Shown here: positions 7,681 through 45,677 of the stretch, piece by piece | Layout: the number at the start of each line of letters is the position of its first letter | How positions within the stretch are numbered: position 1 is the stretch's first letter | Assembly: GCA_964016885.1 (NCBI GenBank) | Contig: OZ024742.1 | Location: forward strand, 86,242,001 to 86,306,000 | Direction: 5' to 3' | From: Eledone cirrhosa | Taxonomy: Eukaryota | DNA length: 64,000 nucleotides | Translations under genes and position numbers: made by a program | Notes under the pieces: generated by a model | Database searches by the model: none | Told to the model about the DNA's origin: nothing | What the model saw: the letters and a program-made list of their open reading frames with translations, nothing else

Positions 7681-7712
<32 letters not shown>
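7681..7712. repeat. (ATT)n linker, tail of Tx1 (+) and of R4/Dong (-)
   Basis: Pure TTA/ATT run between two tail-to-tail elements. Confidence 0.95.
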
Positions 7713-7713
<1 letters not shown>

Positions 7714-11736: not shown

Positions 11737-11778
11737 TTGTCTCCACTCCAGGCACAAGGTCAGCAATCACCCAGTGCA
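11737..11778 (-). mobile_element. SINE 3' tail fragment
   Basis: Reverse complement TGCACTGGGTGATTGCTGACCTTGTGCCTGGAGTGGAGACAA matches the SINE tail. Confidence 0.75.
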
Positions 11779-11789
11779 TTACAATAATA

Positions 11790-12792: not shown

Positions 12793-12794
<2 letters not shown>
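12427..12794. repeat. Tandem duplication, two ~185-bp units
   Basis: TGAATATTTGAGCGATACAAC... starts at 12427 and 12612. Confidence 0.95.
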
Positions 12795-13810: not shown

Positions 13811-13840
13811 TATTATTATTATTATTATTGTTATTGTTAT

Positions 13841-15369: not shown

Positions 15370-18300
15370 GGCGACCTACGTAGTAAATCTTATCATCGTG
15401 AGCTCCGCAAAGCATTGTTGTTTTCGTTTGCTTAAAATTGCCATTTATAGAAAATGTATACTATTAACTGTATATAAGTGCACATACATTGTTTTCCGAA
15501 AAGGACACCCAAAATGATTGGGGCCTTGAGCCCAAAATTTAAACTTTTATAATTATCAAAAAAAAAACTTTTTTGGAAAAAATTTGGACGACTCACAGTC
15601 ACACGAATCTGACAGCCTTCCCCACAAACTAACACCTCACACCGACACCACCATTGTCAATATTACTATGTTTGCCAACACTAAAAATATAAGCAGTAGC
15701 AATATTTTAAATTTGTCTCAGGCAGATATTCATTTCCCGCCATTACCAATGACTGCAGGTGTTAAAGCCGCCACCACCACCACAACCGCGACAACAGAAA
15801 CAAAAGAAAAAAATTAATTAACTCGTGATATTGAAATGAATTCAACCAAAATGAACTCTTCCACACCGAACACCACTGACGCCACCGCCACCACAACTGA
15901 AACTAAAATTAATAATAACAAAAATAACGATAACAACAACAGCAACAATATAATTAAGAAAACCACCCTGAGTTTTGCCAGAGTAGTAAAAGAGTGCGAA
16001 GCATTTCAGGTAACTCAGGAGCAATTAGAAGAAGCCAAAAAAATGGTAAAGAAAGATGGGTACAGGGTCAGCCTCACCCCCCACCTAATAAAATGGAGCA
16101 TCGGCGCCTATGCACCGTGTCTTATCGAACAATTCATATAAAATCGCGCCGACTGGAACGGGCATCCGAGTCCCAAATCCAAAAAGCTTTGGGACATGTG
16201 TGGGCACAAAAAACCCACATCAGACGTGGGCAGAAATATGGAACCGTGGACGTGTTCTTTGAAACACCACAAGAGGCTAGAGAACACTCCATGGACCCAT
16301 TAAGAAGTGACGACTTCACACACGTCCCAAGTTATTGTGGTGAGAGACTCGTAAAGATCAGGGTCACCCACGTTCCACCGGCCATCGAAATTCCCTGGCT
16401 AATAGCTGCCGCCCTCGCCGGCATGGAAGTCAACACCAAAATAATCGAAATAGCGAAAGAAAGGCAGGAGAACTGGTCCGGATCTGGGATGGAGCTCCTG
16501 ATCCAAGCGCACCATAAAAGCATTGAGGAGATCCAAGAGGTAAAAAGGTTGAGGCCACCTCTCCTACCCACCCCAGTAACTCAACCATCAACACCACCAG
16601 CAGCAGAGATGGCAGCAACAACTGTAGCAGCAACAACAGAAGCAACTCTAACAGCCACAAACCCAGCAACAGTAACAAAACTAACACCACCACTACCCAA
16701 CGCGTCAGAACTAGCACCAGCGCCTACATAATCCACCACGCCACAACCAAAACCAACGCCTGTGGAGGATTTTCCACTCCCCGGCCTATCACAACTGGAG
16801 ACAGATTGTGACGACGAGGAGTGGGAAACGGTATCAGGAAAAATGAAAAAACAAAAGAAAAAAAGAAAAAAATTCTCTTCCTTCCCACTCCAAAAACAAA
16901 ATACAAAGGGAAACAAATAAATTATCAAACAAAAAAGTTAGGACAGATATGCCACCATCCACACCAGCATCACCAACCCCATCACCACGAACACCAACAC
17001 CATCACCGTCATTAACCCAAACACCACCATCACCAACACCACAAAAGTAACATAAAATCGAAACAGAAACAAACCCACAACAAACGCAAACAAAACAAAA
17101 CAACCAGAACGATACACACTACACAGCATTAAATTTGAACAACAACCTTGCCTTTCATCCTTACGGGGTCGATAATATAAAGTACCAGTAATACACTGGG
17201 AAATTGCTGGCCTTGTGCCAAAAGTAGAAACAATTAAATTTGAACAACAACCAATTATTACACTACATGCAACACAACACCAGAATCACAGAAAAAGACT
17301 ACACAACAATCCAAAAGTTCACACCACCTCCACACATACAAATCACTCGCATTACACAGAAAACGTACACGACACTAAAACAAAAATTCCCCAAAGACAT
17401 CGGAGACTTCCGACAAACACTGGAGGATTTATAAGGACATCCTTACAGAAGAGACCTCAAGCAGTGAAAAGGATGGACAAACCATCCTTCCTCTACGAGA
17501 AGTAAGGTAAGTGGTCTTTCTTATCTTTTCCACTCCATTTCAACATGACCTCACTCAGAATAGGCAGCATAAATGCGAGTGGCTTGGGTCGTCATGGAAG
17601 CAGGGCCACCTGCTCAACGACCTCAGGTCACTAAACATAGATGTAGTGGCCATCAGCGAGACCAGAATCTCCGAAGCACGGGCCTTCGCACCGATCTTCG
17701 GCGGCTACGATGTGTACGCATCTCCCATCGGTCCGGGATCGGGGGGAGGAGTTGCTGTGCTATTTCGAAGAGGTTTGGATCTCCCCAGACGGGCCATCTT
17801 CCTGGACCCAGAAGGTAAGTTGGTGGTGCTAGACGTGACCAGCGGAGACGGGCAAGCTTTCAGGCTAGTGGCCGTCTATGCCCCGACAGGAGCAGGGCGG
17901 CCCGATTTCTTCCGGCGTCTGGAGACCTTTCTTGGAACTTCCCACCCTTTAGTGTTAGTGGGCGACTGGAACGGGATCTTAGATGCACGCTGGGACTGTG
18001 TGGGATCAGCGGATAGGGGAGGAGGGTGAAAGAGCCTGACCAACCTGCTCAGGCGTGTTGAACTGTCTGACAGGTAACGATTGGATTTCCCGAATGTGCC
18101 AATGTGGACTTGGAGAAATCGCATAGGGTAATCCAGATCATATCTAGATAGAGTATTTTGTAGGGAAATAGATAAGTCTAGGATAGGCTGTCCACAATTC
18201 AAGATAGTCAACTACACGGACCACAAATTCGTGATCTGTGTCCTTGAGTTAGATATGCTTCATAAACGAGGACCCGGCTACTGGAAGCTAAACGCGTCCT

Positions 18301-20921
18301 TACCTAGTGGAAGGCCTACAGAGATCGGATTAGCGAACTAGTTAAGCGGGCGTTGACGGGGGCCATCGTCAACAACAAGTGGTGGTTTGCTCTGAAAAGA
18401 GCAATTAGAATAGAGTGGACCACGACGGGCGCATGCTACTCGATCCCGGGCAAATGTGTGAAGCTTTTCAGAGACACTTCGCTCAGTTTTTCGGGGGCAG
18501 CGGCGGGCCGGAACGAACTTTACGTACATATGCCAGACTTGTTCGGAGGCCTCTTGGCGGACGTCTACTGCAACTGGCAACAGAACCGGAGAATACCCAG
18601 CTCTGTGAGCCGAGGAGCTGTGCGCTGCTGCGAAAGGATCCGAACAAGGGGAATAACATAGATAATGTTAGGCCCATAACTCTGCTAAACACAGAGTTCA
18701 AGATTTTGGCCAAGGTGCTAGCAAAGAGGTTGGCGCTTGTCGTTGGTGGTCTGGTGGGAAAGGCGCAGACATGCGCCATTCCCGACAGATCCATCCACGA
18801 CAACCTCCACCTCATGCGATAAATCGTAGAGAGGGTAACTAGGGAACCTGGCACGGGTGGGTCCTTGATCAATTTAGATCAGTCGAAAGCTTTCGATAGG
18901 GTCGACCATCGTTACCTAGCGGCAGTCCTGAGGGCGGCTAGCTTTGGGCCCGTCTTCAGAGGCTGGATCGCTGCCATGCACAGCGACATCTGCTCTGTGG
19001 TGAGAGTGAACGGTCACCTTTCGGAACCGTTAAACATCATGCGCTGGGTCCGCCAAGGATGTCCCCACTCGTCCCTCTTGTACGTATTGACTCTCGAATC
19101 ATTACTGCACAAACTGGAGACGTTGAGGGGGTCCCGCGCGTACTAGGATGCGGAAGATCCGTGTCAGCATATGCGGCCGATATCACCATAGTGGTGTCGA
19201 ACGCCAAACACATCGAGGCGATCGGCACTACACTAAGAGAATAGGAAGCGGTGACAGGTGCAATGATCAACCAGGAAAAGTCAGTGGGCCTGCAGCTCGG
19301 CACCTGGAGAGGCAGGTCCATGCCGTCCAACAGCGTCGTCGGGCGCTTGACGGATGGACCGGTTAAATTGCTCGGGGTCTGGTTCGGTCCGGATCTCCAG
19401 ACAAAAACTGGGACGGGGTGACGAGCATGGTGGCTTCTCTCACCCAGAAATGGGCCGAGAGGAAGCTATCCCTGAAAGGTCGAGTGGAGGTGGCTAACGC
19501 GTATATCGTGTCCGTCATCTACTACCGCCTGACCGTCGTACCTTGTCCTAAGCCCCGCCTGACTGCGCTGGAGCGTTTACTCTTTCGTTTTTGTGGAAGG
19601 GACGCGCTCCGATGGTCAGGCCGTCCATCTGCTGTCAACACCCGTTACGTAGAGGGCTGGGGATGCCGTGGCTGATGATGCGCAGACACGCGCTCAGGGT
19701 AGGACATATCAACCTATTCCTCGACGGTGATCAGGTGGGGTCGCCGTTTGCTAGACGCGTCTCTCCCCAGCTCGTCTCCTTGATGGAGCTGCAGTCCTGG
19801 GTCAAGCGAAGACTGAGAGGGCGCGCTTGGAGACTGGAATGTCTTCAGGCGCTGACAGCCCTCGACCAATCGGGCAATGTGATCGGTGGAAACTCGACCT
19901 TGGCGTTCTATAGAGGATTAGTGGAGGGGAAGAGCGACGATTTACTTGGGGAAATTCTAGGCATCGACGAAAATCAATTAGCCAATCTCTTCGGAAGAAC
20001 TTTCGGACCGGGGCCTATGGACAACTTCCAGAAATCCCTGGATTGGCAGTGCTAACGAGGAGCTTTACATGTTCGGGATAAACTCTACAGGCATGGAGGT
20101 GCCGTCAGCCGGGCATGTCCGAGATGCGCGCAGGGCGACGAAACCATCCTGCACGCACTAGTCCAGTGTCCGAGCATTGCTGACTTGTGGGTTTGTGTCG
20201 AACACCTGCTGTCACGTGTAGGACGGATCCAGCTATTAGCTTAGTCCATCGTGAGGATTGCCCCGCCCTCTTCCTTTAGCCGGTAAGGGCAGGCAATTTT
20301 TATCTGTCTGGTGGCCATGGCGAAAGAGATAGTATGGTGGACACGTTTGAAAAGGCTGAAGACGAGCAATTACCTCTTCGATGATGCCCTGATTAACTTT
20401 TTCAAATTTTATTTAAACAGGAAAATCAGGGTAGACATGGAAGTGCTCTCTTCCCAGCATTTTATTGAAAGATGGGTGAGAGAGGCAAGAATGGCCCGAG
20501 TGAATGGGCCTACTCTGAGTATGTGTCTGTAAATTAAAGGTGGAAAGCTGGGAGAGGGCACTTGCCTCTCTACCCTGATTTTCCTTTTCAAATGAAATTT
20601 GAAAAAGTTAATCAGGGCATCACCGAAGAGGTAAGTGCTCGTCTTCAGCCCTTTCAGACGCATCCACCATACTCTCTATTTCGCCAAGGCCACCAGACAT
20701 ATAAAAGCTGCCTGCCCTTACACTGTGTCTTTTTAATGGGCTTTCCCCACGAATGCCCATCGGAAGTCTTCCCCTATTGGGAATTTTGTTCATTGTTCTA
20801 TTATTACATCCTCTGTTTCTTGTTTTTTACACGCAGAAATGCCCATTTGTACCGCCCTGTATTGTCCTGTACTGTCCTTAATGTCTACTTTATGTAACCC
20901 CTTGTGGTTAATAAAGAAAGC
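15370..20921 (+). mobile_element. L1/Tx1 copy A (family 1), both ends present, internally deleted and degenerate
   Basis: Starts GGCGACCTACGTAG right after (ATT)n; co-linear with copy B; deletions remove the ORF1 zinc knuckle and parts of ORF2; ends AATAAAGAAAGC+(ATT)n. Confidence 0.95.
17148..17232 (+). mobile_element. 5'-truncated SINE inserted in ORF1 of Tx1 copy A
   Basis: 20-bp TSD ATTAAATTTGAACAACAACC (17128-17147 / 17233-17252); empty site seen in copy B at ~23306. Confidence 0.95.
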
Positions 20922-20945: not shown

Positions 20946-21336
20946 TGCATTTATCTTGCTTTATGTTCATACGAGTTATCACCAAATCACAACCAGTGAC
21001 CTCAAGAGACAACAAGGTCCGCCATGTTCAAGAAAGAACATACATACTCACAATGCATCTTTAGTGTTTAGACTTGTGATGTACTTATATTGACAGAATC
21101 TTCCTTAGTATATGGGCAGTTCCCATTAGTACTATCTTTTGTATTTCTCCTATACGCGGGTTTCCTGGGATTTGCGATAAGTAGTCGTTTGACCCCTTAG
21201 GTATCATTCCCAGAGCGCCTACAACCACTGGTATTGTTTTAGTTCTCAATTTCCACATTTTTCCAATTTCTATCTCCAGGTCCTTATACTTGCTCAATTT
21301 TTCAAATGTTTTTATAGATACATTCTTGTCTATTGG
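20946..21336 (-). mobile_element. R4/Dong family 1, short 3' fragment
   Basis: Near-identical to ~7735-8120 (SKYKDLEIEIGKMW...LRKILSI plus 3'UTR); lies between two (ATT)n tracts. Confidence 0.9.
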
Positions 21337-21387: not shown

Positions 21388-21596
21388 GGCGACCTACGTA
21401 GGAAATCGTATTATCGTGAGCTCCGCAAAGGTTTGTTATTTCCGTTTGTTTAAAAATTACCATTTATGGAAAATTTTATTGTAAACTGTTTATAAGCACA
21501 CATACATTGTTTTCCGAAAAGGACACCCAAAAAGATTGGGGCCTTGTGCCCAAAATTTTAACTTTTATTATTATCCAAAAATTTCTTTGATAAAAA

Positions 21597-23588
21597 ATGG
21601 CTAATTCCCCTCTGCACGAAGCAGCTGAAAGCCTTCCTCACAAAATAACACCTCACACCGACACCACCATTGTAAATGTTACTACGTTTGCCAACACAAA
21701 AAAAAATATAAGCAGTAGCAATATTTTTAATTTGTCTCAGGCAGACATTCATTTCCCGCCATTACCAATGACTGCAGGTGTTAAACCCTCCACCACCACC
21801 ACCACCGCGACAACAGAAACAAAAGAAGAAAAAAATAAATTAACTCGTGACGTCGAAATGAAATCAAGCAAAATGGACTCTTCCCCACCAAAGACGAATG
21901 ACGTCACCACCACCACAACTGAAAATAAAATTAATATTAACGATAGCAACAACAACAACAATGACATTATAAAATCGACCCTCAGTTTCGCCATCGTAGC
22001 AAAACAATTCGAAGCGTTGACGGTAACTCAAGAAGATTTAGAAAATGCCAAACAAATGGTAAAGAAAGATGGGTACAGGGTCAGCCTCACCCCCCCCCCC
22101 CCCGTCCCCCACCCGCCCACCCTCCCCACCTAATAAAATGGAGCATCGGCGCCTGTGCACCGTGTCGTATAGAACAATAAATGTAAAATCGCGCCGAGTG
22201 GAACGGGCATCCGAATCCCAAATCCAAAAAGCTTTGGGACATGTGTGGGCAAGAAAAACCCACATCAGACGTGGGCAGAAGTATGGAACCGTGGATGTGT
22301 TTTTTGAAACACCAGAGGAGGCTAGAGAACACTCCATGGCCCCATTAAAAAGTGACGACCTCACACTCGTCCCAAGCTATTGTGGCCAGAGACTCGTAAA
22401 GATCAGGGTCACCCACGTTCCACCGGCCATCGAAATTCCCTGGCTAATAGCGGCTGTCCTCGCCGGCATGGAAGCCAACACGAAAATAATAGCAGTAGCA
22501 AAAGAAAAGCAGGAAAACTGGTCCGGATCTGGGATGGAGCTCCTGATCCAAGCGGACCAAAAAAGCATTGAGGAGATCCCAGAGGTAATAGACCTCACTG
22601 ACGGCAGCCACCTCACGGTAATTGTCGAGGGCAGAAGACCTAGGTGTGTCGTTTGTGGTGAAGGAACCCACCTAAGGGCTTTCTGCCCTCAGGCTAAAAG
22701 GTTGAGGCCACCTCTCCTACCCACCCCAGTGACACAACCATCAACACCACCAGTAGCAGAGATGGCAGCAACAACTGTAGCAGCAACAACAGAAGCAACT
22801 ATAACAGCAACAACCCCAGCAACAGTAGCAAAACCAACACCACTACCACCACCAGCAAAACCAACACCACCACCACCCAACGCTTCAGAACTAGCACCAG
22901 CGCCTACACCATCCACCACACCACAACCAAAACTAACGGCTGTGGAGGATTTTCCACTCCCCGGCCTATCACAACTGGAGACAGATTGTGACGACGAGGA
23001 GTGGGAAACGATATCCGGAAAAAAAAAAAAGAAACCAAAAAAGAAAAAAATTCTCTTCCTTCCCACTCCAAAAACAAAATACAGAGGGAAACAAATAAAC
23101 TAAGAAACAAAAAAGTTAGGACAGATATGCCACCATCCACACCAGCATCACCAACCCCATCAACCCAAACACCAACACCATCACCATCATTATCCCCAGC
23201 ACCACCATCACCTACACCACAAAAGTCACCAAAATGCGAAACAGAAACAAACCCACAATAAACGCAAACAAAACAAAACAACCAAAACGATACACACTAC
23301 ACAGCATTAAATTTGAACAACAAGCAATTATTACACTACATCCAACACAACACCAGCATCACAGAAAAAGACTACACAACAACCCCAAAATTCACACCAC
23401 CTCCACACATACAAATCACTCGCATCACACAGAAAACGTACATGACACTAAAACAAAAATTCCCCAAAGACATCGGAGACTTCCGACAAGCACTCTCCAG
23501 GAGGATTTATAAGGACATCCTTCCTGAGGAGGCCACAAGCAGTGAAAAGGATGGAAAAGCCGTCCTTCCCCTACGAGAAGTAAGGTAA
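21597..23588 (+). pseudogene. Tx1 ORF1 (gag-like, zinc knuckle CVVCGEGTHLRAFC, T/P/N-rich low-complexity arms), several frameshifts/stops
   Basis: Joined from ORFs 21597-22133, 22069-23103, 23001-23261, 23313-23588; the first break lies in a poly-C run. Confidence 0.8.
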
Positions 23589-23622
23589 GTGGTCTTTCCC
23601 ATCTTTTCCACTCCTTTTCAAC

Positions 23623-26600
23623 ATGACCTCACTCAGAATAGGCAGCATAAATGCGCGTGGCTTGGGGTCGTCATGGAAGCAGGGCCACCTGCTCAACGAC
23701 CTCAGGTCACTAAACATAGATGTAGTGGCCATCAGCGAGACCAGAATCTCTGAAGCACAGGCTTTCGCACCGATCTTCGGCGGCTACGATGTGTACGCAT
23801 CTCCCAGCCGTCCGGGATCGGTGGGAGGAGTTGCTGTGCTTTTTCGGAGAGGTTTGGATCTTGCCATACGGGCCATCTTCCTGGACCCAGAAGGTAAGTT
23901 GGTGGTGCTGGACGTGACCAGCGGAGACGGGCAAGCTTTCAGGTTAGTGGCCGTCTATGCCCCGACAGGAGCAGGGCGGCCTGATTTCTTCCGGCGTCTG
24001 GAGACCTTTCTTGGAACGTCCCGCTCTTTAGTGTTAGTGGGCGACTGGAACGGGATCTTAGATGCACGCTGGGATTGTGTGGGATTAGTGGATAGGGAAG
24101 GAGGGTGCAAGAGTCTCACCAACCTGCTCAGACGTTTTGAACTGTCTGACAGGTACCGAATGGATTTCCCGAATGTACCAATGTGGACTTGGACAAATCG
24201 CATAGGGTCATCCAGATCATATCTAGATAGAGTATTTTGTAGGGAAATAGATAGGTCTAGCATAGGCTGTCCACAATTCAAGATAGTCAGCTACACGGAC
24301 CACAAATTCGTGATCTGTGTGCTTGACTTAGATAGGCTTCATAGACGAGGACCCGGCTACTGGAAGTTAAACGCGTCCTTACCAGCGCGCAAGGCCTACA
24401 AAGACCGGATTAGCGAACTAGTTAAGCGGGCGTTGACGAGGGCCATCGTCAACAACAAGTGGTGGTTTGCTCTGAAAAGAGCAATTAGAATAGAGTCCAT
24501 TAGGTTTAGTAAGACTTTAGCAATAGAGAAAAATAGAGCAGAGGGAGAATTAGTTAGAAAATTAGATGAGGCGCTTAGCAAAGGCATCGCTACAGACGTA
24601 CTTGCGCGAAATTGGCCCTTGACCAATTCTTCAATGCAAAGCACGAAGGCGGCGTTGTCAGAGCTAGGGTGCGTGCTCTCAGACACGAGGGGACGAAAGC
24701 CGTTCAATGGGCCCGAGTGGCGGAGGCGCGTCGTGGCAACAAAGCCACGATCTGGTCTTTGGTGGACCACGACGGGCGCATGCTACTCGATCCCGGGCAA
24801 ATGTGTGAAGCTTTTCAGCGACACTTCGCTCAACTGTTCGGGGGCAGTGGCGAGCCGGATCGAGGGATGGACTTTAGTGTCTACCTCGACGGACTGCCGC
24901 GGCTTTCGGCCACTGAGGCGGAGTGTTGCGAAAAGCCGATAACAACCGCTGAAGTACGGGATGCAATGACTAGTTGCACAAGGGGTAAATCGCCTGGTTT
25001 GGATGGTCTCCCCTATGAACTTTACGTACAAATGCCAAACTTGTTCGGAGGCCTCTTGGCGGATGTCTACTGCAACTGGCAACAGAACGGGAGAATTCCC
25101 AGCTCTGTGAGCCGAGGAGCGGTGGCGCTGCTGAGAAAGGATCCGAACAAGGGGGATAACATAGATAATTTTAGGCCCATAACTCTGCTAAACACAGAGT
25201 TCAAGATTTTGGCCAAGGTGCTAGCAAAGAGGTTGGCGCTTGTCGTTGGTGGTCTGGTGGGAGAGGCACAGACATGCGCCATTCCCGACAGATCCATCCA
25301 CGACAACCACCACCCCATGCGATACATCGTAGAGAGGGTAGCTAGGGAACCTGGCACGGGTGGGTCTTTGATCAATTTAGATCAGTCTAAAGCCTTCGAT
25401 AGGGTCGACCATCGTTACCTAACGGCAGTCCTGAGGGCGGCTGGCTTTGGGCCCGTCTTCAGAGGCTGGATCGCTGCCATGCACAGCGACATCTGCTCTG
25501 TAGTGAGAGTGAACGGTCACCTTTCGGAACCGTTCAACATCATGCGCTCGGTCCGCCAAGGATGTCCCCTCTCGTCCCTATTGTACGTATTGACTCTCGA
25601 GCCATTACTGCACAAACTGGAGACGTTGAGGGGGGGTCCCGCGCGAACTAGGATGCGGAAGATCCGTGTCAGCATATGCCGACGATGTCACCATAGTGGT
25701 GTCGAACGCCAAACACATCGAGGCGATCGGCACTACACTAAGAGAATACGAAGCGGTGACAGGAGCAATGATCAACCAGGAAAAGTCAGTGGGCCTGCAG
25801 CTCGGCACCTGGAGAGGCAGGTCCATGCCGTCCAACAGCGTCGTCGGGCGCTGGACGGACGGACCGGTTAAATTGCTAGGGGTCTGTTTCGGTCCAGACC
25901 TCCAGACGGACAAAAACTGGGACGAGGTGACGAGCAGGGTGGCTTCTCTCACCCAGAAATGGGCCGAGTGGAAGCTATCCCTGAAAGGTCGAGCGGAGGT
26001 GGCGAATGCGTACATCGCATCCGTCATCTACTACCGCCTGACCGTCGTACCTTGTCCTAAGCCCCGCCTGACTGCGCTGGAGCGTTTGCTCTTTCGTTTC
26101 TTGTGGAAGGGACGCGCTCCGATGGTCAGGCGGTCCATCTGCTGTCAACACCCGCTACGTGGAGGGCTGGGCATGCCGTGGCTGATGATGCGCAGACACG
26201 CGCTCAGGCTACGACATCTCCACCTCTTCCTCGACGGTGATCAGGTGTGGTCGCCGTTTGCAAGACACGTTTTTCCCCAGCTCGTCTCCTTGACGGAGCT
26301 GCAGTCCTGGGTCAAGCGAAGACCAAGAGGGAGCGCTTGGAGACTGGAATGTCTTCAGGCGCTCACAGCCCTCGACCAATCGGGCAATGTGATCGGTGGA
26401 AACTCCACCTTGGCGTTCTATAGGGGATTAGTGGAGGGGAAGAGCGACGACGTACTTGGAGAAACTCTAGGCGTCGACGAAAATCAACTAGCCAATCTCT
26501 TCGGAAGGACTTTCGGGCCGGGGCCTATGGACAACTTCCAGAAATCCCTGGCCTGGCAGTGCTACCGAGGAGCTTTGCCAGTTCGGGATAAACTCTACAG

Positions 26601-27042
26601 GCATGGAGGTGCCGTCAGCCGGGCATGTCCGAGATGCGCGCAGGGCGACGAAACCGTCCTGCACGCACTTGTCCAGTGTCCGAGCATTGCTGACTTGTGG
26701 GTTTATGTCGAACACCTGCTGTCACGTGTAGGACCTATCCAGCTATCAGCTGAGTCCATCGTGAGGATTGCCCCGCCCCCTTCCTTTAGCCTGGAAGGGC
26801 AGGCAGTTTTTATCTGTCTGGTGGACATGGCGAAAGAGATAGTATGGTGGACACGTTTGAAAGGGCTGAAGACGAGCACTTACCTCTTCGGTGATGCCCT
26901 GATTAACTTTTTCAAATTTCATTTGAAAAGGAAAATCAGGGTAGAGAGGGAAGTGCTCTCTTCCCAGCATTTTGTTGAAAGATGGGTGAGAGAAGCAAGT
27001 ATGGCCCGAATGAATGGGCCTTCTCTGAGTATGTGTCTGTAA
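23623..27042 (+). pseudogene. Tx1 ORF2: AP endonuclease, reverse transcriptase, C-terminal zinc finger; two 1-bp frameshifts
   Basis: SINARG, ISETR, VYAP, GDWN, YLDRV, TDH (APE); KSPGLDG, FRPITLLN, LDQSKAFDRVDH, VRQGCPLS, AYADD (RT); CPRC..ETVLHALVQC. Frameshifts at ~24607 and in the G-run at ~25630. Confidence 0.92.
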
Positions 27043-27285
27043 ATTAAAGGTGGAAAACTGGGAGAGGGCACTTGCCCTGGTGGTCAGGGCCACTGTGGTC
27101 TTTTAATGGGCTTTCTCCACAAATGTCCCTTGGAAGTCTCCCCCCTATTGGGGAATTTTTCTTTTGTTATTTTATTTCAGCCTCTGTTTTTTTACACGCA
27201 GAAATGCCCATTTGTACCGTCCTGTATTGTCCTGTACTGTCCTTAATGTCTACTTTATGTGAACCCTTGTGGTTAATAAAGAAAA

Positions 27286-27286
<1 letters not shown>

Positions 27287-27339
<53 letters not shown>

Positions 27340-27396
27340 GCACTGGGTAATTGCTGGCCTTGTGCCAAACGTAGAAACAATTATTATTATTATTAT
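27287..27396. repeat. (ATT)n linker interrupted by a SINE 3' tail (27339-27380, +)
   Basis: (ATT)n-TGCACTGGGTAATTGCTGGCCTTGTGCCAAACGTAGAAACA-(ATT)n. Confidence 0.9.
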
Positions 27397-30300
27397 CAGT
27401 CTGTTCGGACGCTTATTTTTCGCTCCCAGTAATCGCTTTATTTGCCTGTTAAAATTAGTTGTTGTTAAATATTTCTTGTTGTGTAAGGGATATAAGCCCT
27501 TAGACTTTGCCCTATGAAGGGGAAAGTATAATATTTGGGCCTTTTCGCCCAAATATTTGAACATTTTACTTTTAAAAAAATTGTTTAAAAAAAAACACTT
27601 ACATTTAAAGAAAACGAAAAAAAAACGAAAAAAAAACGAAAAAAAAAAAAAAACATGGCTGAGCCACGACCCCAGCAATGTGTCTACTGTCGTCTGACAA
27701 CGGCGTAAAAGTTGAGAGGAGTGTTACAAACATTGTTACAAAAGTCACCACCACAAACAACGTGAACAAATACAACACTGAGAACACACATTTCGAAACA
27801 TTTACCACACCATCTACAACAATAACAGCGTAAACCAAAATACAGACAACAGAAAAAAATTACAACAAATACAACAATGATATTAACACCACTAACAAGA
27901 AAATAAACAACGACAACACCAACAGCAACAATACAAATTGCACCGAAAGCAACAACAACGGTGGCACCACTGTTATCAACAGTGATAATAGCAACAACAC
28001 CAACAACACCGTTTGTAGCAGTAGCAACAGCAACAACAGCAACAACAAAACCAATAATGGCAGCAATAATGGTGCCGCGGAAAAAGGGGCCACTTCTTTC
28101 GCAGGTGTGGCCCGAAATATAGAAACAATGCTAGTCACGGAGGAGGAGATGGCAATCGCTAGAGCCATGGTGTCGAGAAACGACAACAGAGTTTCCTTGA
28201 AACCTCCACCCGATTTATTCAAAGCCCAGCAACTGCGCACGGTGACTTACCGCACCGGAAGCAAAATATCGAATCGGGTGGAGAGAGCCACGGAGGCTCA
28301 GATCCAAAAAGCCTTGGATGCGTCTAGGCGCTCAAAACCCACAACACTCGAGGCAAAAAGTACGCCACAGTAGACGTACTTTTCTTTGGAAAACCTAAAG
28401 AGTGAGGAGATATTATTGGTGCCCTCCTACTGCGGGCAGAAAATTGTGAGGGTCAAAGTGACCCAGGTCCCACCCGACGTGCCCATACCTTGGCTGGCCT
28501 CCTCTGTACAGGCCGGAATAGAGGAGAAGAAAACCATACTGCAAATACATATAATGGCAAGAGAGAACTACTCAGGAATAGGCAAGCAAATGCTAATACA
28601 GACTGACCAGGAGTGCATCGAGGCCATCCCATACATCGTAGACCTCGAAGAAGGGCTCCAACTCCCTATACGCGTGGAAGGAAAGCGCCCAAAGTGCTAT
28701 CTCTGTGGGCAGGAGGGTCACCTCATGGCCTTCTGCCAGCAGAATAAATGCAGTTAAAAATATACGTGGTCACCTGCTCAACGACTGCAGGTCACTAAAT
28801 ATAGATGTAGTGGACATCAGCGAGACCAGAATCTCCGAAGCTCGAGCCTTGGCACTGATCTTCTGCGGCTACGATGTATACGCATCTCTCAGCCGTCCAG
28901 GAGATGTTGCCGTGATTTTTCGGAAATGCTTGGATATTGCCATACGGGCCATCTTCCTGGACCCAGAAGGTAAGTCGATGGTGCTGGACGTGATCGGCAG
29001 ACAAGGCAATGCTTTCAGGCTAGTAGCCGTCTACGCCTCAACAGGGGCAGGTCGGCCAGATGTCTTCAGACGTCTAGAGAACTTTCTTGGAATGTCCCAC
29101 TCTTTAGTGTTAGAGGGTGACTGGAACGGTATCTTAGATGCAGGCTGGGATTTTGTGGGCTAATAGACAGGGCATGAGGGTGTAAAAGCCTGTCTGGCAG
29201 GTATAGACTTGATTATCCAAATGGGCCCATGTGGATATGGGCAAACACCATCGGGTCATCCAGATCGTATTTATATAGGGTATTCTGTAGAAAACAGATA
29301 AGGCTAGTGTAGGTTATCCACAATTTAAAGTAGTCGACTACACGGACCACATATTTGTGATCTGTGAAGTTGACTTATATAGACTCCAATGGTAAGGGCC
29401 CGGCTACTGGAATCTGAAAGCGTCGTTCCCGGCGCGCAAAGCTTACAGAGACCGCATTAGCGAATTAGTTAAGCGTGCGTTGACGGGTGCGATCGTCAAC
29501 AACAGGTGGAGGTTTACCCTGGAAAGGGTTATTAGAGTAGAATAGATAAGGTTTAGCAAAGGAGTAGTGATAGAGGAAAATAGAGTAGAGGGAGACTTTG
29601 TTAGAAAGATAGAAGAGGCGTTTATGACGTGCTTGCACCGAAATTGGCACTCGACCAATTCTTCAACGCAAAACATGAAGACTGCGTTGTCATAGCTAGA
29701 ACGCCTGCTCTGAGACACGAAGGGACGAAAGCCGTTCAATGGGCCCGGGTAGTGTAGGCGAGACGTGTCAACAAGTCCACAATTCTGTCTGTGCCTGATC
29801 AAAGCGGGCGCATGTTGCTCGAACCCGAGCAGATGTGTGCCGCTTTTCAACAGGACTTTGCGGGCCGGATCGGAGTATGGACTTCGGTGCATACCTCGAC
29901 GGACTGCCGCGGTTCTCGACAACCGCAGCGCAGTGCTACAAAAAGCCGATAACAGCAGGTGAAACATGGGAAGGAGTAAATCGCCTGGTTTGGATGGTGT
30001 TCCCTACGAGCTTTATGCCAGACTTGTTCGGCGACCTCTTGGCAACAGAACGGGAGCATTCCCAGTTTTGTGAGTCGGGGAGCGGTGGCGCTACTGAGAA
30101 AAGACGCGAACAAGGGGACGTTATAGACAACTTCAGGCCCATAACTCTCCTAAATGCAGAGTTTAAGATTTTGGCCAAGGTGTTAGCAAATATATTGTTG
30201 CTTGTCGTTGGGGATCTGGTGGTAGAGGCGCAGACATGCGCCATCACCGACAGATCCATCCACGGCAAACTCCATCTCATGCGATACATCATAGAGAGGG

Positions 30301-32268
30301 TGGTTACGGAACCTGGCACGGGTGGGGCCCTGATGAACTTGGATCAATCTAAAGTATTTCATATGGTCGACCATCGGTACCTGGCTACAATCCTCGAGGC
30401 GGCCTGCTTCAGGCCCGTTCTTAGGGACTAGATCGTTGCGATGCACATCGACATTTGCTCGATTGTGAGGATCAATGGTCACCTGTCGCAGCCTTTCAGC
30501 ATCATGCGCTCGGTTCGCCAGGGTTGCCCCCTCTCGTCCCTCTTCTCTGTCCTAGCCCTCGACCCGTTACTGCACACATTGGAGAAGATGAGGGGGGTCC
30601 CACCCGAACTGGGATGCCGGGGATCCAATCAGCTTACGCCGACGACGTCACCGTGGTGGTGTCGAGTACAAACACGTCCAGATGCTCGGCACCACTGTCA
30701 AGGAATACGAAGCGGTGACAGGAGCAAAGATAAACCAGGAAAGGTTGGTGGGCTTGCAGCTCGGCACCTGGAGAGGCAAGTGCATGCCGTCCGACAGCGT
30801 CACGGGGCGCTGGACGTAAGGACCGGTTAAATTGCTCGGTGTCCGGTTCGGTCCGGACATCCAGATGGAGAATAACTGGAGCGTATTGCCGAGCAGAGTG
30901 GCCTCTCTCATCCAGAAATGGGCCGAGGGGAGGCTGTCTCTGAAAGGTCGGGCGGAGTTGGCGAATGCGTACATTGCGTCCGTCATCTGTTACCGCCTGA
31001 TCGTCGTACCTTTCCCCCGCCCAACTCTTTCAAAAATGGAACGCCTTCTATTCCGCTTACTGTGCAAGGGACGTGCTCCCATGGTCAGACGATCCATTTG
31101 CTCTCAACACCCATTGCGTGGAGGACTAGTCATGCCGTGGCTTATGATGCGCAAACATGCGCTGAGGCTGCGATATCCCTGGTGCTACCTTGGCGGTGAA
31201 CAGGTGTGGTCGCCGTTTGCCAGATGTGCTTTTCCCCAGTTCGTATCCTTTACGGAGCTGCAGTCCTGGATTTGGAAAAGACTGAGGGATAGCGGTTGGA
31301 AGCTGGAATGTCTCCAAGCAGTCACCACCCTCTACCAGCTGGGCACTAGTATCGGTGGAACATCAACCTCGGCGTTCTATATAGGACTAGTTGAAGAAAG
31401 AGCGACGACGTTCTCGGGGAGACCCTGGGCGTCAAACGCGATCAGCTGTTCGCTCTCTTCGATAAAACTTTCAGGCCGGCGCCTATGGACAACTTCCAGA
31501 AATCCCTGGCCTGCCAGTGCTACCGGGGAGCGTATCGGTTCAGGATATGCTCTATAGGCACGAAGGTGCCGTCTGCCGAGCCTGTTCGAGATGCGCGCAG
31601 GGCGACGAAACCAACCTGCACGCACTCGTTCAGTGTCCGAGGATTGCTGACTGTGGAACTATGTCGAACAGCTGGTGTCGCGTGTAGGACGGATCCGGTT
31701 ATCGACTGAGTCCATTGTGCAGATAATCTCGCTATCCTCCTTTAAAGATGTGTAACGGCGGGCAGTTTTCATCTGCCTGGTGGCCATGGCGAAAGAGATT
31801 GTGTTCTGGACAAGGTTGAAAGGGTTGAAGACAGACACTTTCCCTCTCCGGCCCATCCCTCATTAACCTTTTCAAGTTTCACTTGAAGAGAAAAATCACG
31901 GTGGAGAGGCAAGTGCTGTCTTCTAGTAAGTTTGTTGAAAGGTGGGTGAAAGTGGCGAGTCTGGTCTGAATGAACGCACCAGCTCTAAGTATACACCTGT
32001 AGACTGAGGAGTGGGAAAATTGAGAGAGGGCGCTTGCCCTGGTGGTCAGAGTGGCCGTGTTCTTTTGTGTGGTTTTCACTACAAGTGACTCTCGGAAGTT
32101 TCCCCCTTCTTGAGAAATTTCTGTTCGTTTGAATTTTTTTTGGATTTCTAGCCCGATTTTGTTATAACCTGTTTACACGACCAAAATCCACTTTGTATCG
32201 TCCTGTACTGCTCTGTGGCGTCTCTAATGTTTTCCTTCGTGTCAGCCCTTGTGGCCAATAAAGAAACC
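27397..32268 (+). mobile_element. L1/Tx1 copy C (family 2), degenerate
   Basis: Distinct 5'UTR and Asn-rich ORF1 with CYLCGQEGHLMAFC; deletion into ORF2; APE/RT remnants (FRPITLLN, VRQGCPLS, AYADD); ends GGCCAATAAAGAAACC+ATTATT. Confidence 0.9.
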
Positions 32269-32275
32269 ATTATTA

Positions 32276-32742
32276 GATAGTATGGTGGACGCGTCTGAAA
32301 GGGCTGAAGAAGAGCCCTTACCGCTTCGGTGATGCCCTGATTAACTTTTTCCAATTTCATTTGAAAAGGAAATCAGGGTAGAGTGGGAAGTGTTCTCTTC
32401 CCAGCATTTTGTTGAAAGATAGGTGAGAGAGGCAAAAATGACCCGAGTGACTGGACCTACTCTGAGTATGTGCCTGTAAATTGAAATGGAAACTGGGTGA
32501 GGACACTTGCCCTTGTGGTCAGAGTCACCTTGGCTTTTTTTAAAGGGTTTTCTCCATGATGGCCTTTGGAAGTCATCCCCCTATTGGGGAATTTTTCATT
32601 GTTCCTTTTTTGTTACATACTCAGTTTTTGGTTTTTTTACACGCAGAAAGGCCCATTTGTACCGTCCTGTATTGTCCTGTATTGTTCTGTACTTTCCTTA
32701 ATATCTTACTTTGTGTAAACCCCTGTGGTTAATAAAGAAAGC
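32276..32742 (+). mobile_element. L1/Tx1 copy D, 3' fragment (family 1)
   Basis: Homologous to ~26836-27286; ATT tracts on both sides. Confidence 0.9.
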
Positions 32743-32760
32743 ATTATTGTTATTATTATT

Positions 32761-35332
32761 AAAATTGCTAGGAGTCGGGTTCGGCCCGGACCTCCAGACG
32801 GACAAAAACTGGGACGAGGTGACGAGCAGGGAGGCTTCTCTCATCCAGAGATGGGCAGAGAGGAAGCTATCCCTGAAAGGTCGAGCGGATGTGGCGAATG
32901 CGTACATCGCATCCGTCATCTACTACCGCCTGACCGTCGTACCTTGTCCTAAGCCTCGCCTGACTGCACTGGAGCGTTCTCTCTTTCGCTTTTTGTGGAA
33001 GGGATCGCTCCGAACGTCAGGCTGTACATCTGCCGTCAACACCCGCTACGTGCGGGGCTGGGCATACCGTAGCTGATGACGCGCAGACACGCGCTCAGGC
33101 TACGGCATCTCGACCTCTTCATCGACGGTGATCAGGTGTGGTCGCTGTTTGCTAAATGCATCTTTCCCCAGCTCGTCTCCTTGACGAAGCTGCAGTCCTG
33201 GGTCAAGCGAAGACCGAGAGGGTGCGCTTGGAGACTGGAATGTCTTCAGACGCTCCCTGCCCTCGACAAGTCGGGCAATGTCATCGGTGAAAACACCACC
33301 TTGGCATTCTATAGAGAATTAGTGGAGGGGAAGCGCAACGACGTACTTGGGGAAAATCTAGGCGTTGACGCAAATCAACTAGCCAATCTCTTCGGAAGAA
33401 CGTTCGGGCAGGGACCCATGGACAATTTCCATAAATCCCTGGCCTGGCAGTGCTAACGAGGAGCTTTGCCAGTTCGGGATAAACTCTACAGGCATGGAGG
33501 TGCCGTCAGCCGGGCATGTCCGAGATGCGTGCAGGGCGACGAAACCGTCCTGAATGCACCCGTACAGTGTCCTGCATTGCTGACTTGTGGGTTTGTGTCG
33601 CACACCTGCTGTTGCGTGTAGGACGGATCTGGCTATCAGCTGAGTCCATCGTGAGGATTGCCCCGCCTTCTTCCTTTAGCCGGTAAGGGCAGGCAGCTTT
33701 TATCTGTCTGGTGGCCTTGGCGAAATAGAGAGTATGGTGGATGCGTCTGAAAGGGCTGAAGACGAGCACTTACCTCTTCGGTGATGCCCTGATTAACTTT
33801 TTCAAATTTCATTTGAAAAGGAAAATCAGGGTAGAGGGGCAAGTGTCCTCTCCCAGTTTTCCACTTTCAATTTACAGGCATATACTCAGGGTAGGCCCAT
33901 TCACTCGGGCCATTCTTGCCTCTCTCACCCCCCATCTTTCAACAAAATGCTGGGAAGCGAGCACTTCTCCCACTGGACGACTGCATGAAGGAGGGTTTCG
34001 TCACCCTGCGCGCATCTCGGCCATGCCCTGCTGACGACATTCCATGCCTGTAGAGTTTATCCCGAACTGGCAAAGCTCCTCGGTAGCACGGCCAGGCCAA
34101 CAACAATGAGAGTAACAACTACATCAACACCAGCGCAAAACAAAATGTGTCGCTTGCTAAAGCAGCCCCGCAAAACGAGACAGTCGAAGTTAGCCAGGTT
34201 GAATTGAATGAAGCCAAGCGAATGGTAAAAAAAGATGGCTACAGGGTCAGCCTCACCCCCACATCTAATAAAATGGAGCGTCGGCGCTTATGCACCCTGT
34301 CATATCGGTCGATAAACACAAAATGACCCCGAGTGGAACGGGCATCCGAGTCCCAGATACAAACACTTTGGGACTTGTGTGGGCGGAAAAAATCCACGTC
34401 AAATGTGGGCAGACATGTGGAACCGTGGACGTGTCTTTGGAACCCCACAAGGCCCCATTAAAAAGTGGCTCGTCCCAACCTATTGTGGTCAGAGGCTCGT
34501 GAGGTTCCGCCGGCCATTGAAATTCCCTGGCTAATGGCTGCCCTCATTGCCGATATCGAGGCCAACACTAAATTAATGGAGGTGATAAAAGTAAAGCAGG
34601 AGAACTGGTCAGTATCTAGGATGAAGCTCCTGATCCAAGCGGACCTAAAAAACATACAAGAAATTTCAGAAGTGATATACCTCAATGACGGCAGCCACGT
34701 CACCGTAATCATTGAGGGTAGAAGGTCTAGGTATGTCGTTTGTGTCGAAGGAACCCACCTAAATGCTTTCAGCCCTCAGGCTAAAAAAATGAGGCCACAT
34801 CTCCTACCCACCCCAGCGACTCAACCATCAAAACCAGGGGCAGAAATGGCAGCAAGAACTCTATCAGCAATAACAGAAACAACTATAGCAGCAACAACAG
34901 CAACAGCTTTAGGCACAACAGTTGCAAAACCAACATCACCATCACGCGCCAGAATTAGGACCAGCACCTCCACCATCCACCACGCCACAACAAAAACCAG
35001 CACCTGTGAAAAATCAGGGATAGATTTGAAAAGAAAATCAGGGTAGAGAGGGAAGTACTCTCTTCCGAGCATGTAAATTGAAGGTGGGAAACAGGGAGAA
35101 AGCACTTGCCCTGGTGGTCAGGGTCACCGTGCCCTTTTTAATGGGCTTTCTCCACGAATGTCCCTCGGAAGTCTATTGGGGAATTTGTTATTGTTTATTT
35201 TTGAGTTACATTCTCTGTTTTTGTTTTTACACACAGAAATGCCCATTTGTACCGTCCTGTATTGTCCTGTATTAAACTGTATTGTCCTTAATGTCTTACG
35301 TTGTGTAAACCTTGTGGGTTAATAAAGAAAGC
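32761..35332 (+). mobile_element. L1/Tx1 copy E, rearranged composite (ORF2 3' part, two inverted pieces, ORF1 piece, 3' end)
   Basis: 32761-33840 ORF2 3' half; ~33840-33968 and ~33971-34098 inverted; 34099-35008 ORF1-like; 35009-35332 3' end plus (ATT)n. Confidence 0.85.
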
Positions 35333-35349: not shown

Positions 35350-38300
35350 GATTGAATCTGAACGGACGTCTTTTTTCTCGCTCTCGTAAGTTTATTTATT
35401 TACCTCTCAAAACTTATTGAATTTGTTTGTTGTTGTGTAAGGCATGCAAGCTTTTTTGGCCCAAATATTTGAACTTTTTTACATTTTAAAAAATTATCGA
35501 GAAAAAAACAACGACAACCAAAATACAGATAACAGAAAAAATGACAAATGCAACAACAATATCAACACAACTAACATGAAAACAAATAGCGACAACACCA
35601 ACAACAACAATACCAAATGCACCGAGAACAACGGCGGCACCAAAGACAACAATGATAACAGCGACAGTGAAAACAACAACACCAACAAGAATAAAGACAA
35701 CAACAACACCACCAATGACTAAGAAGAACACTTTCGCTGCGGCAGAAGCCAAAAAGAGGCCAAGCTTCAACATGGACCTCTCGAACAAAGATGAAAAGTT
35801 GGCCCATGCCTGGAAGCTCATCAAGCAAGAGCAAACCTGGGCCAACTTAACTGTCCCGGTAGAAGCTATTAAGGCAGTGTAGTGCAGAAAGGTGCATTAT
35901 AGATGCATTTCAGCACAAACCAAAAGGGCAGCTTTAATTCCAAAAGCAGATATCGAAGTCGCGCTGAGGTGCATGAGGGATGACACCGAATACATAGCGA
36001 GGGGCAGACAATACGGCACCATTTCGGTGCTGTTTAGTTCAGAAGCCCTCGTTATGAAACATGCTATGCCACCTTACAAAACCAGCAAGGTCATAATGTA
36101 CCCCTACCACATGGGAAAAAGAACAGCCCGTCTCCGCATTCCCAGAATCCCACCAGGACTTGACATATGGTGGCTTCTAGGATGTTCGATTGTGGTGGGG
36201 AGGGATACAGTCCCGATAGAAGTGACAAGAAATGCCAAATGGAATGGTCCGGGTTGACCTGGAGATACTTCCCAAGATCAGGCCGGAGAATGTGAAGACA
36301 ATCCCGGACCACATCCGCCTTCAGAATGGGACGGTCATTCATATTATGACCGAGGGAAAAAGGCCGCATTGTTTTGTTTGTGGAGAAAAAACTCATTTGG
36401 GAGCCTTCTGCCCTCAACTGCTTAAAGATGCAAAGGGTCGAAGGGCTCCACTGCTACCGACGCCGGGGTGAGGACCACAACCAACACCAGCACCGGCAAA
36501 ACCACCAGCAACAAAACCAATAGAAAGACCACCACCAACATGGACCACCCAGGGGGGAACGAGGAAAGTATCAAATTCCTCCTCCCCCCAAAAGTACACA
36601 CATCAATAAGAACATAAACACACACAAACACACTAACAGCCACAGACACCTTATCTCCCAGTAGTGAAGATGAGGGAAAATCAAAATCCCCCAAAATACA
36701 AAAAAGAAACACATAAAGAAAAAACAATCTCAACAAAGCACAAAAACATCCACAATAAAAAATGCCGACACCACCTACGCAAACATCTCCCCAACAACAT
36801 CAACATCAACACCACCATCACCTTCACCAGAATCCCCCAAACGCAAACAACCTAAACAGACACAAGAACAAATACACACACAAACATCTGAAACCACATA
36901 CACCGCACTAACAACAAACACAGACACAATCGAAACAACACCGTCATAACAATCACCACCACAACCACGCAAACAAATAAAATCACACCACAAAACATAC
37001 AAAATTCGTGCTCGTCAGGAGGGCCAACAAGGAACTGATGGCCATCGTAGCACGAAGTGAAGATATACAAAAAGTGGGGGAAATTTTAAAATCGAATACA
37101 TTTCGAGTACCGGAAGATTTGTTTTTTGTGCGAATAGGGTCATAGGGTCATCAAGATCGTATATAGACAGGATATTCATTAGGAAAATAGACAGAATTAG
37201 TGTAAGCTGTCCACGTTTTGAAACGGTCGCCTATTCAGATCACGAGTTTGTGATCTGTATGGTCGACCTAGATAAGACGCGTAGGTTAGGACCTGGTTAC
37301 TGGAAGCTAAACATGTCATTTCCGGCACTTAAGGCTTACAGGTACCAGGTCAACAACTTAGTTAAGAAAAGTTGACAGGGGGAGTCGTCAACAATAGATG
37401 GTGGGGGGCTCTCAAAAGAGAGATTAGAGTAATGTCGATAGAGTTTAGCAAAGAAGGAGTGTTAGAAAAAAATAGAAAGGAGTGGTAATTGGTAGATAAG
37501 TTAGACGAGGTTATTTGTAGTAGCATTGCAACTAACGTGCTAGCGAGAGAATGGCATTAGACGATTTCTTCAATGCGAAACATGAAAGTGCATTGTCAGA
37601 GCTATGACGCGTGCTCTGAGAAACGAGGGAACCAAAGCTGTTACAGAGGCTCGCGTGGCAGAGGCGCAGCGTGGTATTAAAACCAAGATTCGGTCTTTGA
37701 CGGACCGAGATGGACACGAGCTGAGCGATTCCAAGCGGATGTGTGAGGCCTTTCGCCAACATTTTGCTCGGTTGTTCGGGGGTTGTGGCGGGTCAGAGAC
37801 GGTGGCGGACTTCAGTCCCTAATTCGATGGTTTGCCACAACTCTCAACAGGCGAGGCTGGGTACTGCGAAAGGCCAATTACTTCAGCCGAGCTTCAGGAT
37901 GCCCTTGCCGGCTGCATGAGGCGCAAGTCACCCGGTTTGGATAGTCTGCCCTACGAACTTTACATAGCTATGCCAGATTTGTTCTCCAATCTCCTCAAAG
38001 AGCCTTACTGCAACTGGCAGCAGAACGGGAGTATTCCCAGTTCCGTTATCCGGGGCGTAGTGACGCTGAGAAGGAAAGACGAGTACAAGAGGGACACATT
38101 AGACCATTTCCGCCCCATAACTCTGCTCAACACAGAGTTTAATATTTTGGCCAGGGTGTTAGCGAAGAGGTTGGCGCTTGTCGTCGGGGATTTGGTTGGG
38201 GAGGCGCAAACTTGCGCAATCCCAACCAGGTCCATACAGGACCACCTCCACCTGGGTGTAAACCTGGCTTCGGTGTAAACCTGGCTTCGGTGGTACTGAT

Positions 38301-39938: not shown

Positions 39939-39942
39939 ATTA

Positions 39943-40085
39943 TTTACGTCGTTAGCTCCATTCCCGCCGAGCATTGCTTTGCCTTTTTTCCTTGCGGGGT
40001 CGATCAATTTAGCAACAGTAACATACTGGGTCTGATTTAATTGACTTTCACATCCCCTTCAATTGCTGGCCTAAAGTAGAAACAA
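39943..40085 (+). mobile_element. SINE 3' half (box B onward), diverged
   Basis: TTCCCGCCGAG..CTTTGCCTTT..CCTTGCGGGGTCGAT...AATTGCTGGCCTAAAGTAGAAACAATTATT. Confidence 0.8.
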
Positions 40086-43148: not shown

Positions 43149-43202
<54 letters not shown>

Positions 43203-43206
<4 letters not shown>

Positions 43207-45611: not shown

Positions 45612-45677
45612 ATATATATATATTTATGTATATATATGTATGTATATATATATATGTGTATGGATGGATATATGTCA

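Follow-up and report, generated by a model that had tools for sequence, protein, structure and literature searches.

A stem-loop tail shared by a tRNA-UCON3 SINE and Tx1-like LINEs of Eledone cirrhosa points to a candidate SINE-LINE partnership

The abundant SINE in a 64,000-nucleotide stretch of the Eledone cirrhosa genome (contig OZ024742.1, positions 86,242,001 to 86,306,000; hereafter the window) is most likely mobilised by a LINE of the Tx1 lineage, by way of a tail bearing a CUUGU stem-loop, and a Tx1 partnership is more probable still if it may include a variant in which the tail comes from a copy of the hairpin in the LINE 5' UTR. The partnership is supported by a covarying stem-loop that lies in the same register in both kinds of element and by their shared ATTA target and strand, and for this pairing the structure is better evidence than plain sequence. 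The preliminary description of this DNA had proposed such mobilisation, and the proposal is strengthened on these grounds while stopping short of proof, as the comparison took in only the LINE families of the window; the exact partner family may lie outside it.

Using the SINE copy at 55128 as query we found 17 matches within the window, representing 11 loci that include a 3' end, besides a head fragment, an inverted piece and a 13-nt match due to chance. A tRNA-like head is followed by a central body and about 45 nt of tail, and the element is about 180 nt long in its short form and about 210 nt in its long form, the latter being an older subfamily with an insert of about 29 nt before the tail. 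It is short, non-coding, dispersed and present in high copy number, with 5' truncations and target-site duplications, all features of tRNA-derived SINEs (SINE2), to which it probably belongs. Short copies in the window are 88-92% like the reference copy, and read depth over the SINE is very high in all four sequencing runs. By-eye reading of the 55128 copy places an A-box-like motif at about 55137-55148 and a B-box-like motif at about 55197-55207; ARAGORN reported no tRNA gene in the window (0 genes) and an Rfam scan of it no tRNA, only simple-repeat noise below gathering scores. SINE heads commonly escape tRNA detection. The copies are as follows.

55128-55307, plus strand: full-length SINE, short subfamily; UCON3 body at about 55208-55262, hairpin 55283-55295, spacer 55296-55307
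63361-63542, minus strand: full-length SINE with an 8-bp target duplication
27340-27379, plus strand: 5'-truncated SINE, tail only; hairpin 27355-27367, 12-nt spacer 27368-27379
27287-27339 and 27380-27396: (ATT)n runs bracketing the 27340 SINE tail
17147-17232, plus strand: 5'-truncated SINE inside Tx1 family 1; 18-bp duplication 17128-17145 / 17233-17250
4893-5054, plus strand: SINE with an inverted 5' piece (4893-4917); 18-bp duplication, read from the junction
2428-2551, plus strand: internally deleted SINE with a 19-bp duplication
6691-6901, plus strand: older SINE, long subfamily; stem variant AGGC/GCCT, duplication matching at 15 of 18 positions
39946-40084, plus strand: decayed long-subfamily SINE adjoining the Tx1 family 3 end; hairpin partly deleted
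11738-11779, minus strand: decayed SINE tail
53826-53964 (minus strand) and 5780-5806 (plus strand): other decayed SINE copies
7135-7215: SINE head fragment

The inverted 5' piece of the 4893 copy may be set beside twin priming, a known habit of L1. The long form has a second hairpin, of 7 bp, before a C-rich stretch (6841-6857, 40017-40037), which the short form does not have. In the raw-read run the insert of the long form supplies the most frequent of the listed loose ends (29,045 reads at 5021); its letters are also present in the other three runs, and the reads suggest that this form is common genome-wide. Joints between a SINE end and a SINE head rank with the best-supported joints of contigs from two organisms, and thus the SINE also forms head-to-tail runs, like the Tx1 array described below. 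An octopus SINE subfamily may combine this body with a longer tail that is closer to Tx1; the first 30 letters after the body, which the loose-end table covers, speak neither for nor against it.

The element had been labelled a tRNA+Meta SINE, a label that we replace, as the body is a UCON3 domain and the bivalve Meta SINE sequences are unlike it. It matches the published UCON3 alignment by eye (PMC7245038), and a motif taken from that alignment matches the SINE copies at 4976 and 55229, with no match in 100 shuffles; the UCON3 body directly follows the tRNA head, as in UCON3-domain SINEs. MetaSINEs are defined by a 66-bp Meta domain after the tRNA head (PMC4824008), and a Meta domain was rejected because the body is unlike BivaMeta-SINE1 and BivaMD-SINE1, these two sequences, rather than the Meta consensus of that paper itself, having served for the comparison; a 17-nt motif drawn from them had no match at three mismatches. 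A tRNA head followed by a UCON3 body of about 55 nt is likewise found in UCON3_CM, SINE2-5_PM, SINE2-15_ADi and SINE2-2_NW, and the hagfish SINE2-1 to -10_EBu also combine a tRNA head with a UCON3 body, but the UCON3-domain SINEs listed have RTE, CR1 or unknown tails, whereas the tail here is Tx1-like (PMC7245038). Such SINEs are known from Chordata, Nematoda, Cnidaria and Xenacoelomorpha; in the accessible part of that source, supplement file 1 holds no octopus entry and the main text does not mention Tx1 (PMC7245038), so that the UCON3 body would be extended here to a lineage off its published list. The body pattern had no match in viral and prokaryote genome contigs and two in metagenome contigs, which have the UCON3 core in common with the SINE but not the tail. 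Both of these contigs (L001 and L002) continue from the core into different sequence and apparently belong to other animals.

The LINEs in question occupy an (ATT)n hotspot from about 7200 to 40100, in which three plus-strand families lie head to tail with minus-strand R4-type elements between them. The plus-strand LINEs encode an APE endonuclease, a reverse transcriptase (RT) and zf-RVT (Pfam); the solved structure nearest to their ORF2 is human L1 ORF2p (E 1e-31, versus 1e-17 for R2), and their best informatively named match is 'transposon TX1 149 kDa protein', at 40% identity. The three families are 70-79% alike at the ORF2 end, and copies of family 1 are 89-94% alike. Judged by their APE and RT domains, pairwise identities and target preference, these are Tx1-like LINEs of the L1 group. 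Every Tx1 copy in the window is frameshifted or truncated, and the viral and genome contigs searched held no relatives of the Tx1 loci. Argonauta hians provides the best named relative of one RT of the window (59%), and the mixture of Dong-R4, L1-Tx1, CR1, RTE, Penelope and SINEs matches the list for Octopus vulgaris (PMC13282606). The Tx1 copies are as follows.

21388-27286, plus strand: Tx1 family 1, full length, frameshifted; ORF1 region and ORF2 (APE, RT, zf-RVT); 3' hairpin 27262-27274, 5' UTR hairpin 21539-21551
15370-20921, plus strand: Tx1 family 1, second copy, 94% identical over the ORF2 end; 3' hairpin 20897-20909, 5' UTR hairpin 15521-15533
27397-32268, plus strand: Tx1 family 2; 3' hairpin 32244-32256, 5' UTR hairpin core 27537-27550 within an 11-bp stem
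32276-35332, plus strand: truncated, rearranged Tx1 family 1 pieces, with 3' ends at 32742 and 35332
35350-39938, plus strand: Tx1 family 3; 3' hairpin 39913-39925 with two of its four pairs broken, 13-nt spacer
7220-7681, plus strand: Tx1 family 3 3' fragment; hairpin 7656-7668

Inverted pieces of family 1 also lie inside or after Tx1 copies, at 20544-20722 and 33837-34099.

The four ends quoted in the preliminary description are present as written: that of the SINE (27340-27396, 55128-55313) and those of Tx1 family 1 (27262-27292), family 2 (32244-32274) and family 3 (39913-39944). We compared four SINE copies with 16 LINE ends by 3'-anchored alignment after removal of the ATT tails, with 400 dinucleotide shuffles for each comparison. 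SINE and Tx1 ends are identical in register at 13-17 of 25 nt (52-68%), the best 3'-end match being family 2 with 17. Measured against shuffles, the proposed likeness is significant for families 2 and 3 (scores 15-27, p<=0.005 in 11 of 12 comparisons) and marginal for family 1 (scores 8-15, p<=0.05 in only 4 of 16). The ends of R4 elements (scores 0-7, p>=0.15 in 20 of 20) and of RTE elements (scores 0-6, p>=0.27 in 12 of 12) are at chance level, and the single CR1-like end scores 13-17 (p 0.005-0.022 in 4 of 4). In the window's full set of 3,253 ATT-preceded 30-mers, a single site inside R4 coding sequence equals the family 2 end (score 25), four sites outside SINE and Tx1, from two repeats, score at least 20, and no family 1 end falls within the top 40. 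Bivalve SINE-LINE pairs share 35-61 bp at 72-95%, and are thus both longer and closer than the roughly 25 nt at 52-68% seen here (PMC11481361). By sequence alone the tail likeness is suggestive, and the dozens of LINE families in a genome would weaken it.

The structural comparison is more telling. SINE and Tx1 ends both have a 4-bp stem and a CUUGU loop 12-13 nt before ATT, and they align nearly without gaps as 4 nt, CTTGT, 4 nt, a 12-nt spacer (13 in family 3) and ATT, while the stem itself changes: it is TGGC/GCCA in the short SINE, AGGC/GCCT in the long SINE copy at 6694 and AACC/GGTT in Tx1 family 1, all three fully paired, and AGCC/GGCC in family 2, where three of four pairs form. RNAalifold predicts the 4-bp stem unprompted from eight SINE and seven Tx1 ends. 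Pairing holds in 44 of 52 stem cells, 13 of them with two-sided changes, neither value being reached in any of 500 shuffles, although relatedness alone can beat such shuffles, the Tx1 families being mutually related and the independent stem types few. Two-sided changes occur at three of the four stem pairs, and controls with a slid register pair at 19-48%. A shared 3' stem-loop with compensatory changes, as looked for in partner pairs, is therefore present, though the stem is broken in both family 3 copies of the window (by one and two pairs) and the copy ending at 39938 does not fold the hairpin; at 7666, in family 3, 77-99.8% of the aligned depth in the four runs carries the pairing letter, from reads that may be those of other families. 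There are 138 CTTGT sites in the window, of which 11 have at least three of four pairs and an ATT 11-14 nt downstream (shuffle mean 2.8, maximum 7 in 200), and 10 of these 11 are SINE (6) or Tx1 (4) ends; the motif scans were defined after inspection of the data and the element ends were placed by hand. A further scan, in which all 14 sites were SINE or Tx1 (shuffle maximum 1), was tuned on examples and is descriptive only. The SINE tail hairpin is no more stable than its shuffles (z +0.33), and folding energy alone lends no support. A conserved lower stem was considered and rejected: it is found in Tx1 family 1 and, through chance letters, in one SINE copy, and the alignment does not predict it.

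Two further properties concern the Tx1 ends. Read depth over the last 40 nt (at 7666) is 6, 23, 540 and 13 times that at 7610, 55 nt upstream, in the four runs; relative to the ORF2 end (7290) it is 0.6-2.2-fold. These values are summed depth rather than copy number. Such a rise is what a terminal signal conserved among the Tx1 families would give, but so would truncated stubs or a further non-autonomous element. Tx1 ends keep an AATAAA in the spacer and the SINE has none, as would be expected if a Pol II poly(A) signal is required by the LINE but not by a SINE that Pol III transcribes.

Target and strand also agree. ATTA follows 9 of 11 SINE ends and all seven Tx1 ends, compared with none of ten R4, RTE and CR1 ends, all ends having been set by hand; the seven Tx1 ends are followed by ATTAT and all four full-length copies are preceded by (ATT)n, albeit within one hotspot. 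The five readable SINE duplications (19, 18, 18, 18 with three mismatches, and 8 bp) all start with ATTA, for which the background is 0.7-1.3% per position; Tx1 duplication lengths are unreadable because the copies lie in (ATT)n runs. SINE and Tx1 thus have the same 3' repeat and target signature, a second property looked for in partner pairs. The SINE pieces in the array do lie on the Tx1 strand as described, at 27340 and 39946, and so does that at 17147.

We propose that the SINE would be transcribed by Pol III and that a Tx1-lineage LINE with an (ATT)n target would supply the ORF2 protein that copies it in trans, the last 25 nt of the SINE mimicking the 3' recognition signal of that LINE. 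The putative signal consists of a 4-bp stem closed by C-G, the CUUGU loop, a 12-nt A-rich spacer with a GAAAC-like ending, and AUU; ORF2p would bind the loop, leaving the stem sequence free to vary. The APE endonuclease would nick opposite an ATTA site, the nicked strand would pair with the AUUA end of the RNA and prime reverse transcription, and a second nick 8-19 nt away would give rise to the target duplication. On its sequence features the SINE and Tx1 behave like a stringent SINE-LINE pair, of which they are a candidate example.

It is unlikely that the true partner belongs to another LINE clade (CR1/CR1-Zenon, L2, Nimb or similar), represented either by the CR1-like element at 46340-48050 or by a family outside the window, with the Tx1 likeness being convergent or a relic. 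In molluscs and hagfish the partner is usually CR1, L2, Nimb or RTE (PMC11481361, PMC7245038), our tests covered only 16 LINE ends from one window, and the CR1-like end, besides its significant scores, has the same TGGC/GCCA stem followed by GAAAC; that end, however, has a 4-nt CUGG loop and a 16-nt spacer and runs into (AT)n rather than ATTA. Five published bivalve tails (CR1, two Nimb, Zenon and L2) are unlike the SINE tail by eye (PMC11481361), and the chance-level R4 and RTE ends also speak against another clade. R4 was rejected as partner for these scores and for its opposite repeat orientation, and RTE for its scores and for ends without a following ATTA; a GAAAC common to the SINE and the R4 copy at 12864 was discounted, being absent from the two sister copies of that element.

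The Tx1 5' UTRs bear on where the tail came from. Both copies of family 1 have, some 150 nt into the element, the hairpin GGGC-CTTG(T/A)-GCCC followed by a 12-nt A/T spacer (15521-15545, 21539-21563). The family 2 hairpin, at 27530-27565, shares this core but is longer (z -3.1), and 12 nt separate it from an ATT; in family 3 only the right half is present (about 35455-35475). It is improbable that the SINE tail was taken from this 5' UTR hairpin, or that the 5' UTR arose by capture of an old 3' end, of SINE or Tx1, in a tandem array, with Tx1 still the mobiliser of the SINE. The family 1 5' UTR hairpin agrees with the SINE tail at 18 of 25 positions, versus 13-17 for the Tx1 3' ends, and shares with it the stem polarity and an exact 11-mer; bipartite LINE pieces in SINEs are known, from RTE and Vingi only (PMC5786205). 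The SINE spacer, with GAAAC and then ATT, is nevertheless closer to the Tx1 3' ends, and the complete 5' UTRs align only weakly with the SINE in local comparison (20 comparisons; family 1 at p about 0.02, no significance for the other two families). Either ORF2p binds both RNA ends, or the 5' UTR hairpin is a captured 3' end, or it is the source of the SINE tail, and each of these ties the SINE to Tx1. Only tentatively do we suggest that these Tx1 elements are stringent-type LINEs with a CUUGU-type hairpin and a 12-nt spacer at both RNA ends, exploited by the dominant octopod UCON3 SINE. If true, the double hairpin would suggest two-ended RNA recognition by ORF2p, or 5' UTRs derived from captured 3' ends in tandem arrays.

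A chance likeness of two short AT-rich ends, with a relaxed mobiliser reading only the AUU end, is very improbable: the match is short, its per-site empirical p of about 1-5 in 3,200 would be eroded by many LINE families, the motif is post hoc and the hairpin energetically weak, but a chance origin would require the loop, its closing pair, the compensated stems and the 12-nt spacing to coincide.

Returning to the Tx1 partnership, the preliminary description further held that the SINE seeds new (ATT)n targets, as at 55308, where an R4 had entered a SINE tail. The seeding claim is not borne out by the five copies with readable duplications, in all of which the ATT belongs to the duplicated target and no ATT run is added beyond it. 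The empty site for the 17147 SINE, at 23306-23323 in the sister Tx1 family 1 copy, already has ATTA, which therefore predates the SINE. Many SINE copies elsewhere are followed by (ATT)n (in one sequencing run, from loose ends at 5060), as fits targeting as well as seeding. The R4 insertion, on the other hand, is real:

55323-55713, minus strand: 5'-truncated R4/Dong-type LINE at the SINE 3' flank, with a perfect 14-bp duplication (55309-55322 / 55714-55727)

This duplication indicates that the R4-type element inserted after the SINE; the ATT-rich site itself may predate both. The element is 88% identical to the copy at 13842, whose C terminus reads like a restriction-like endonuclease with a PD motif, and full-length relatives have no APE domain; we take such elements to be of R4/Dong type. 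R4 copies use the same repeats from the opposite strand, their own strand ending in (AAT)n. Two R4/Dong-type families are present in the hotspot, always opposite to Tx1 (7713-11640, 12864-15340 and 20947-21336, all minus strand).

Shared 3' stem-loops between SINEs and LINEs are well established (PMC4176376, PMC3747384), and in zebrafish L2 the loop is read specifically while the stem is exchangeable (PMC4176376). UnaSINE/UnaL2, ZfL2-1 and ZfL2-2 likewise have a short 3' stem-loop before a tandem-repeat end, with a conserved loop and a variable stem (PMC4176376, PMC3747384). The partners in those pairs are L2, CR1 or RTE, whereas the candidate here is Tx1, of the L1 group, with only about 25 nt in common. 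A 2013 table of 58 SINE-LINE pairs, in its accessible part, includes no Tx1 partner and three L1 tails, from maize/sorghum and Chlamydomonas (PMC3747384). Of these, ZmSINE2/3 with LINE1-1_ZM and SINEX-3_CR with L1-1_CR likewise combine an L1-group 3' hairpin, compensatory changes and sharing by a SINE, but they come from plants and green algae, involve L1 rather than Tx1, and have poly(A) or (T) ends with no microsatellite target reported in that part of the source (PMC3747384).

The one SINE-Tx1 case in the literature searched, as far as the sources were accessible, is the crocodilian SINEU, for which mobilisation by the Tx1 clade (Tx1-Mar) was likewise inferred, from shared target preference (PMC4494074). 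SINEU has U1/U2 heads, poly(A) tails and a Mariner target, in contrast to the tRNA head, ATT end and shared 3' hairpin described here, and the accessible part of that report states that no LINE shares the SINEU-1 3' end (PMC4494074). Kibi and Koshi are likewise Tx1-type APE LINEs found in simple repeats; compared by description, their targets are (TC)n, (TTC)n, (TTCC)n and (TTTC)n rather than (ATT)n (PMC4494074). Among molluscs, bivalve SINEs use CR1, CR1-Zenon, L2 and Nimb (PMC11481361), and octopus SINEs have been labelled tRNA-Core and tRNA-Deu (PMC8967140); the accessible parts of PMC4758252, PMC5786205, PMC8967140 and PMC12988792 name no Tx1 partner. No cephalopod SINE-Tx1 pair was found in the literature searched, and one may already be described in Repbase or Dfam entries, the 1994 octopus SINE paper (OK/OR1/OR2) or octopus repeat libraries, which lay outside the search.

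In Octopus vulgaris, SINEs account for 11.6% of the genome, and of 900 SINE families with recent activity 893 are unclassified (PMC13282606); the accessible parts of the literature searched name no partner LINE for them. A Tx1 partner, if confirmed, would tie the octopus SINE expansion to one enzyme and explain both the landing at ATTA sites and the tandem runs. It would also mean that an L1-group LINE of an animal recognises its 3' end stringently, a case absent from the accessible part of the 2013 table of 58 pairs (PMC3747384), and would provide the first pair of an animal SINE and a Tx1 element joined through a structured tail common to both, naming the engine of that expansion.

Several other repeats were noted in the window. 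Two 185-bp tandem copies, 96% alike, lie beside (TTA)24 at 12427-12794; in minus-strand reading they are followed by low-complexity DNA and a SINE tail, and may represent another element's 5' end. An inverted repeat of about 70 bp, possibly MITE-like ends, surrounds simple repeats immediately 5' of the full-length SINE at 55128 (about 54630-54705 and 55045-55125). A 383-nt inverted repeat, 99% complementary with its arms 6.4 kb apart (43149-43531, 49965-50347), encloses Penelope-like (GIY-YIG, 44382-45590), RTE and CR1 pieces. An element of about 600 nt with an RTE-like 3' end, possibly a non-autonomous bipartite RTE, occurs three times in (AT)n (45666-46274, 49465-49922, 59520-60123); its 59520 copy has a 25-bp duplication.
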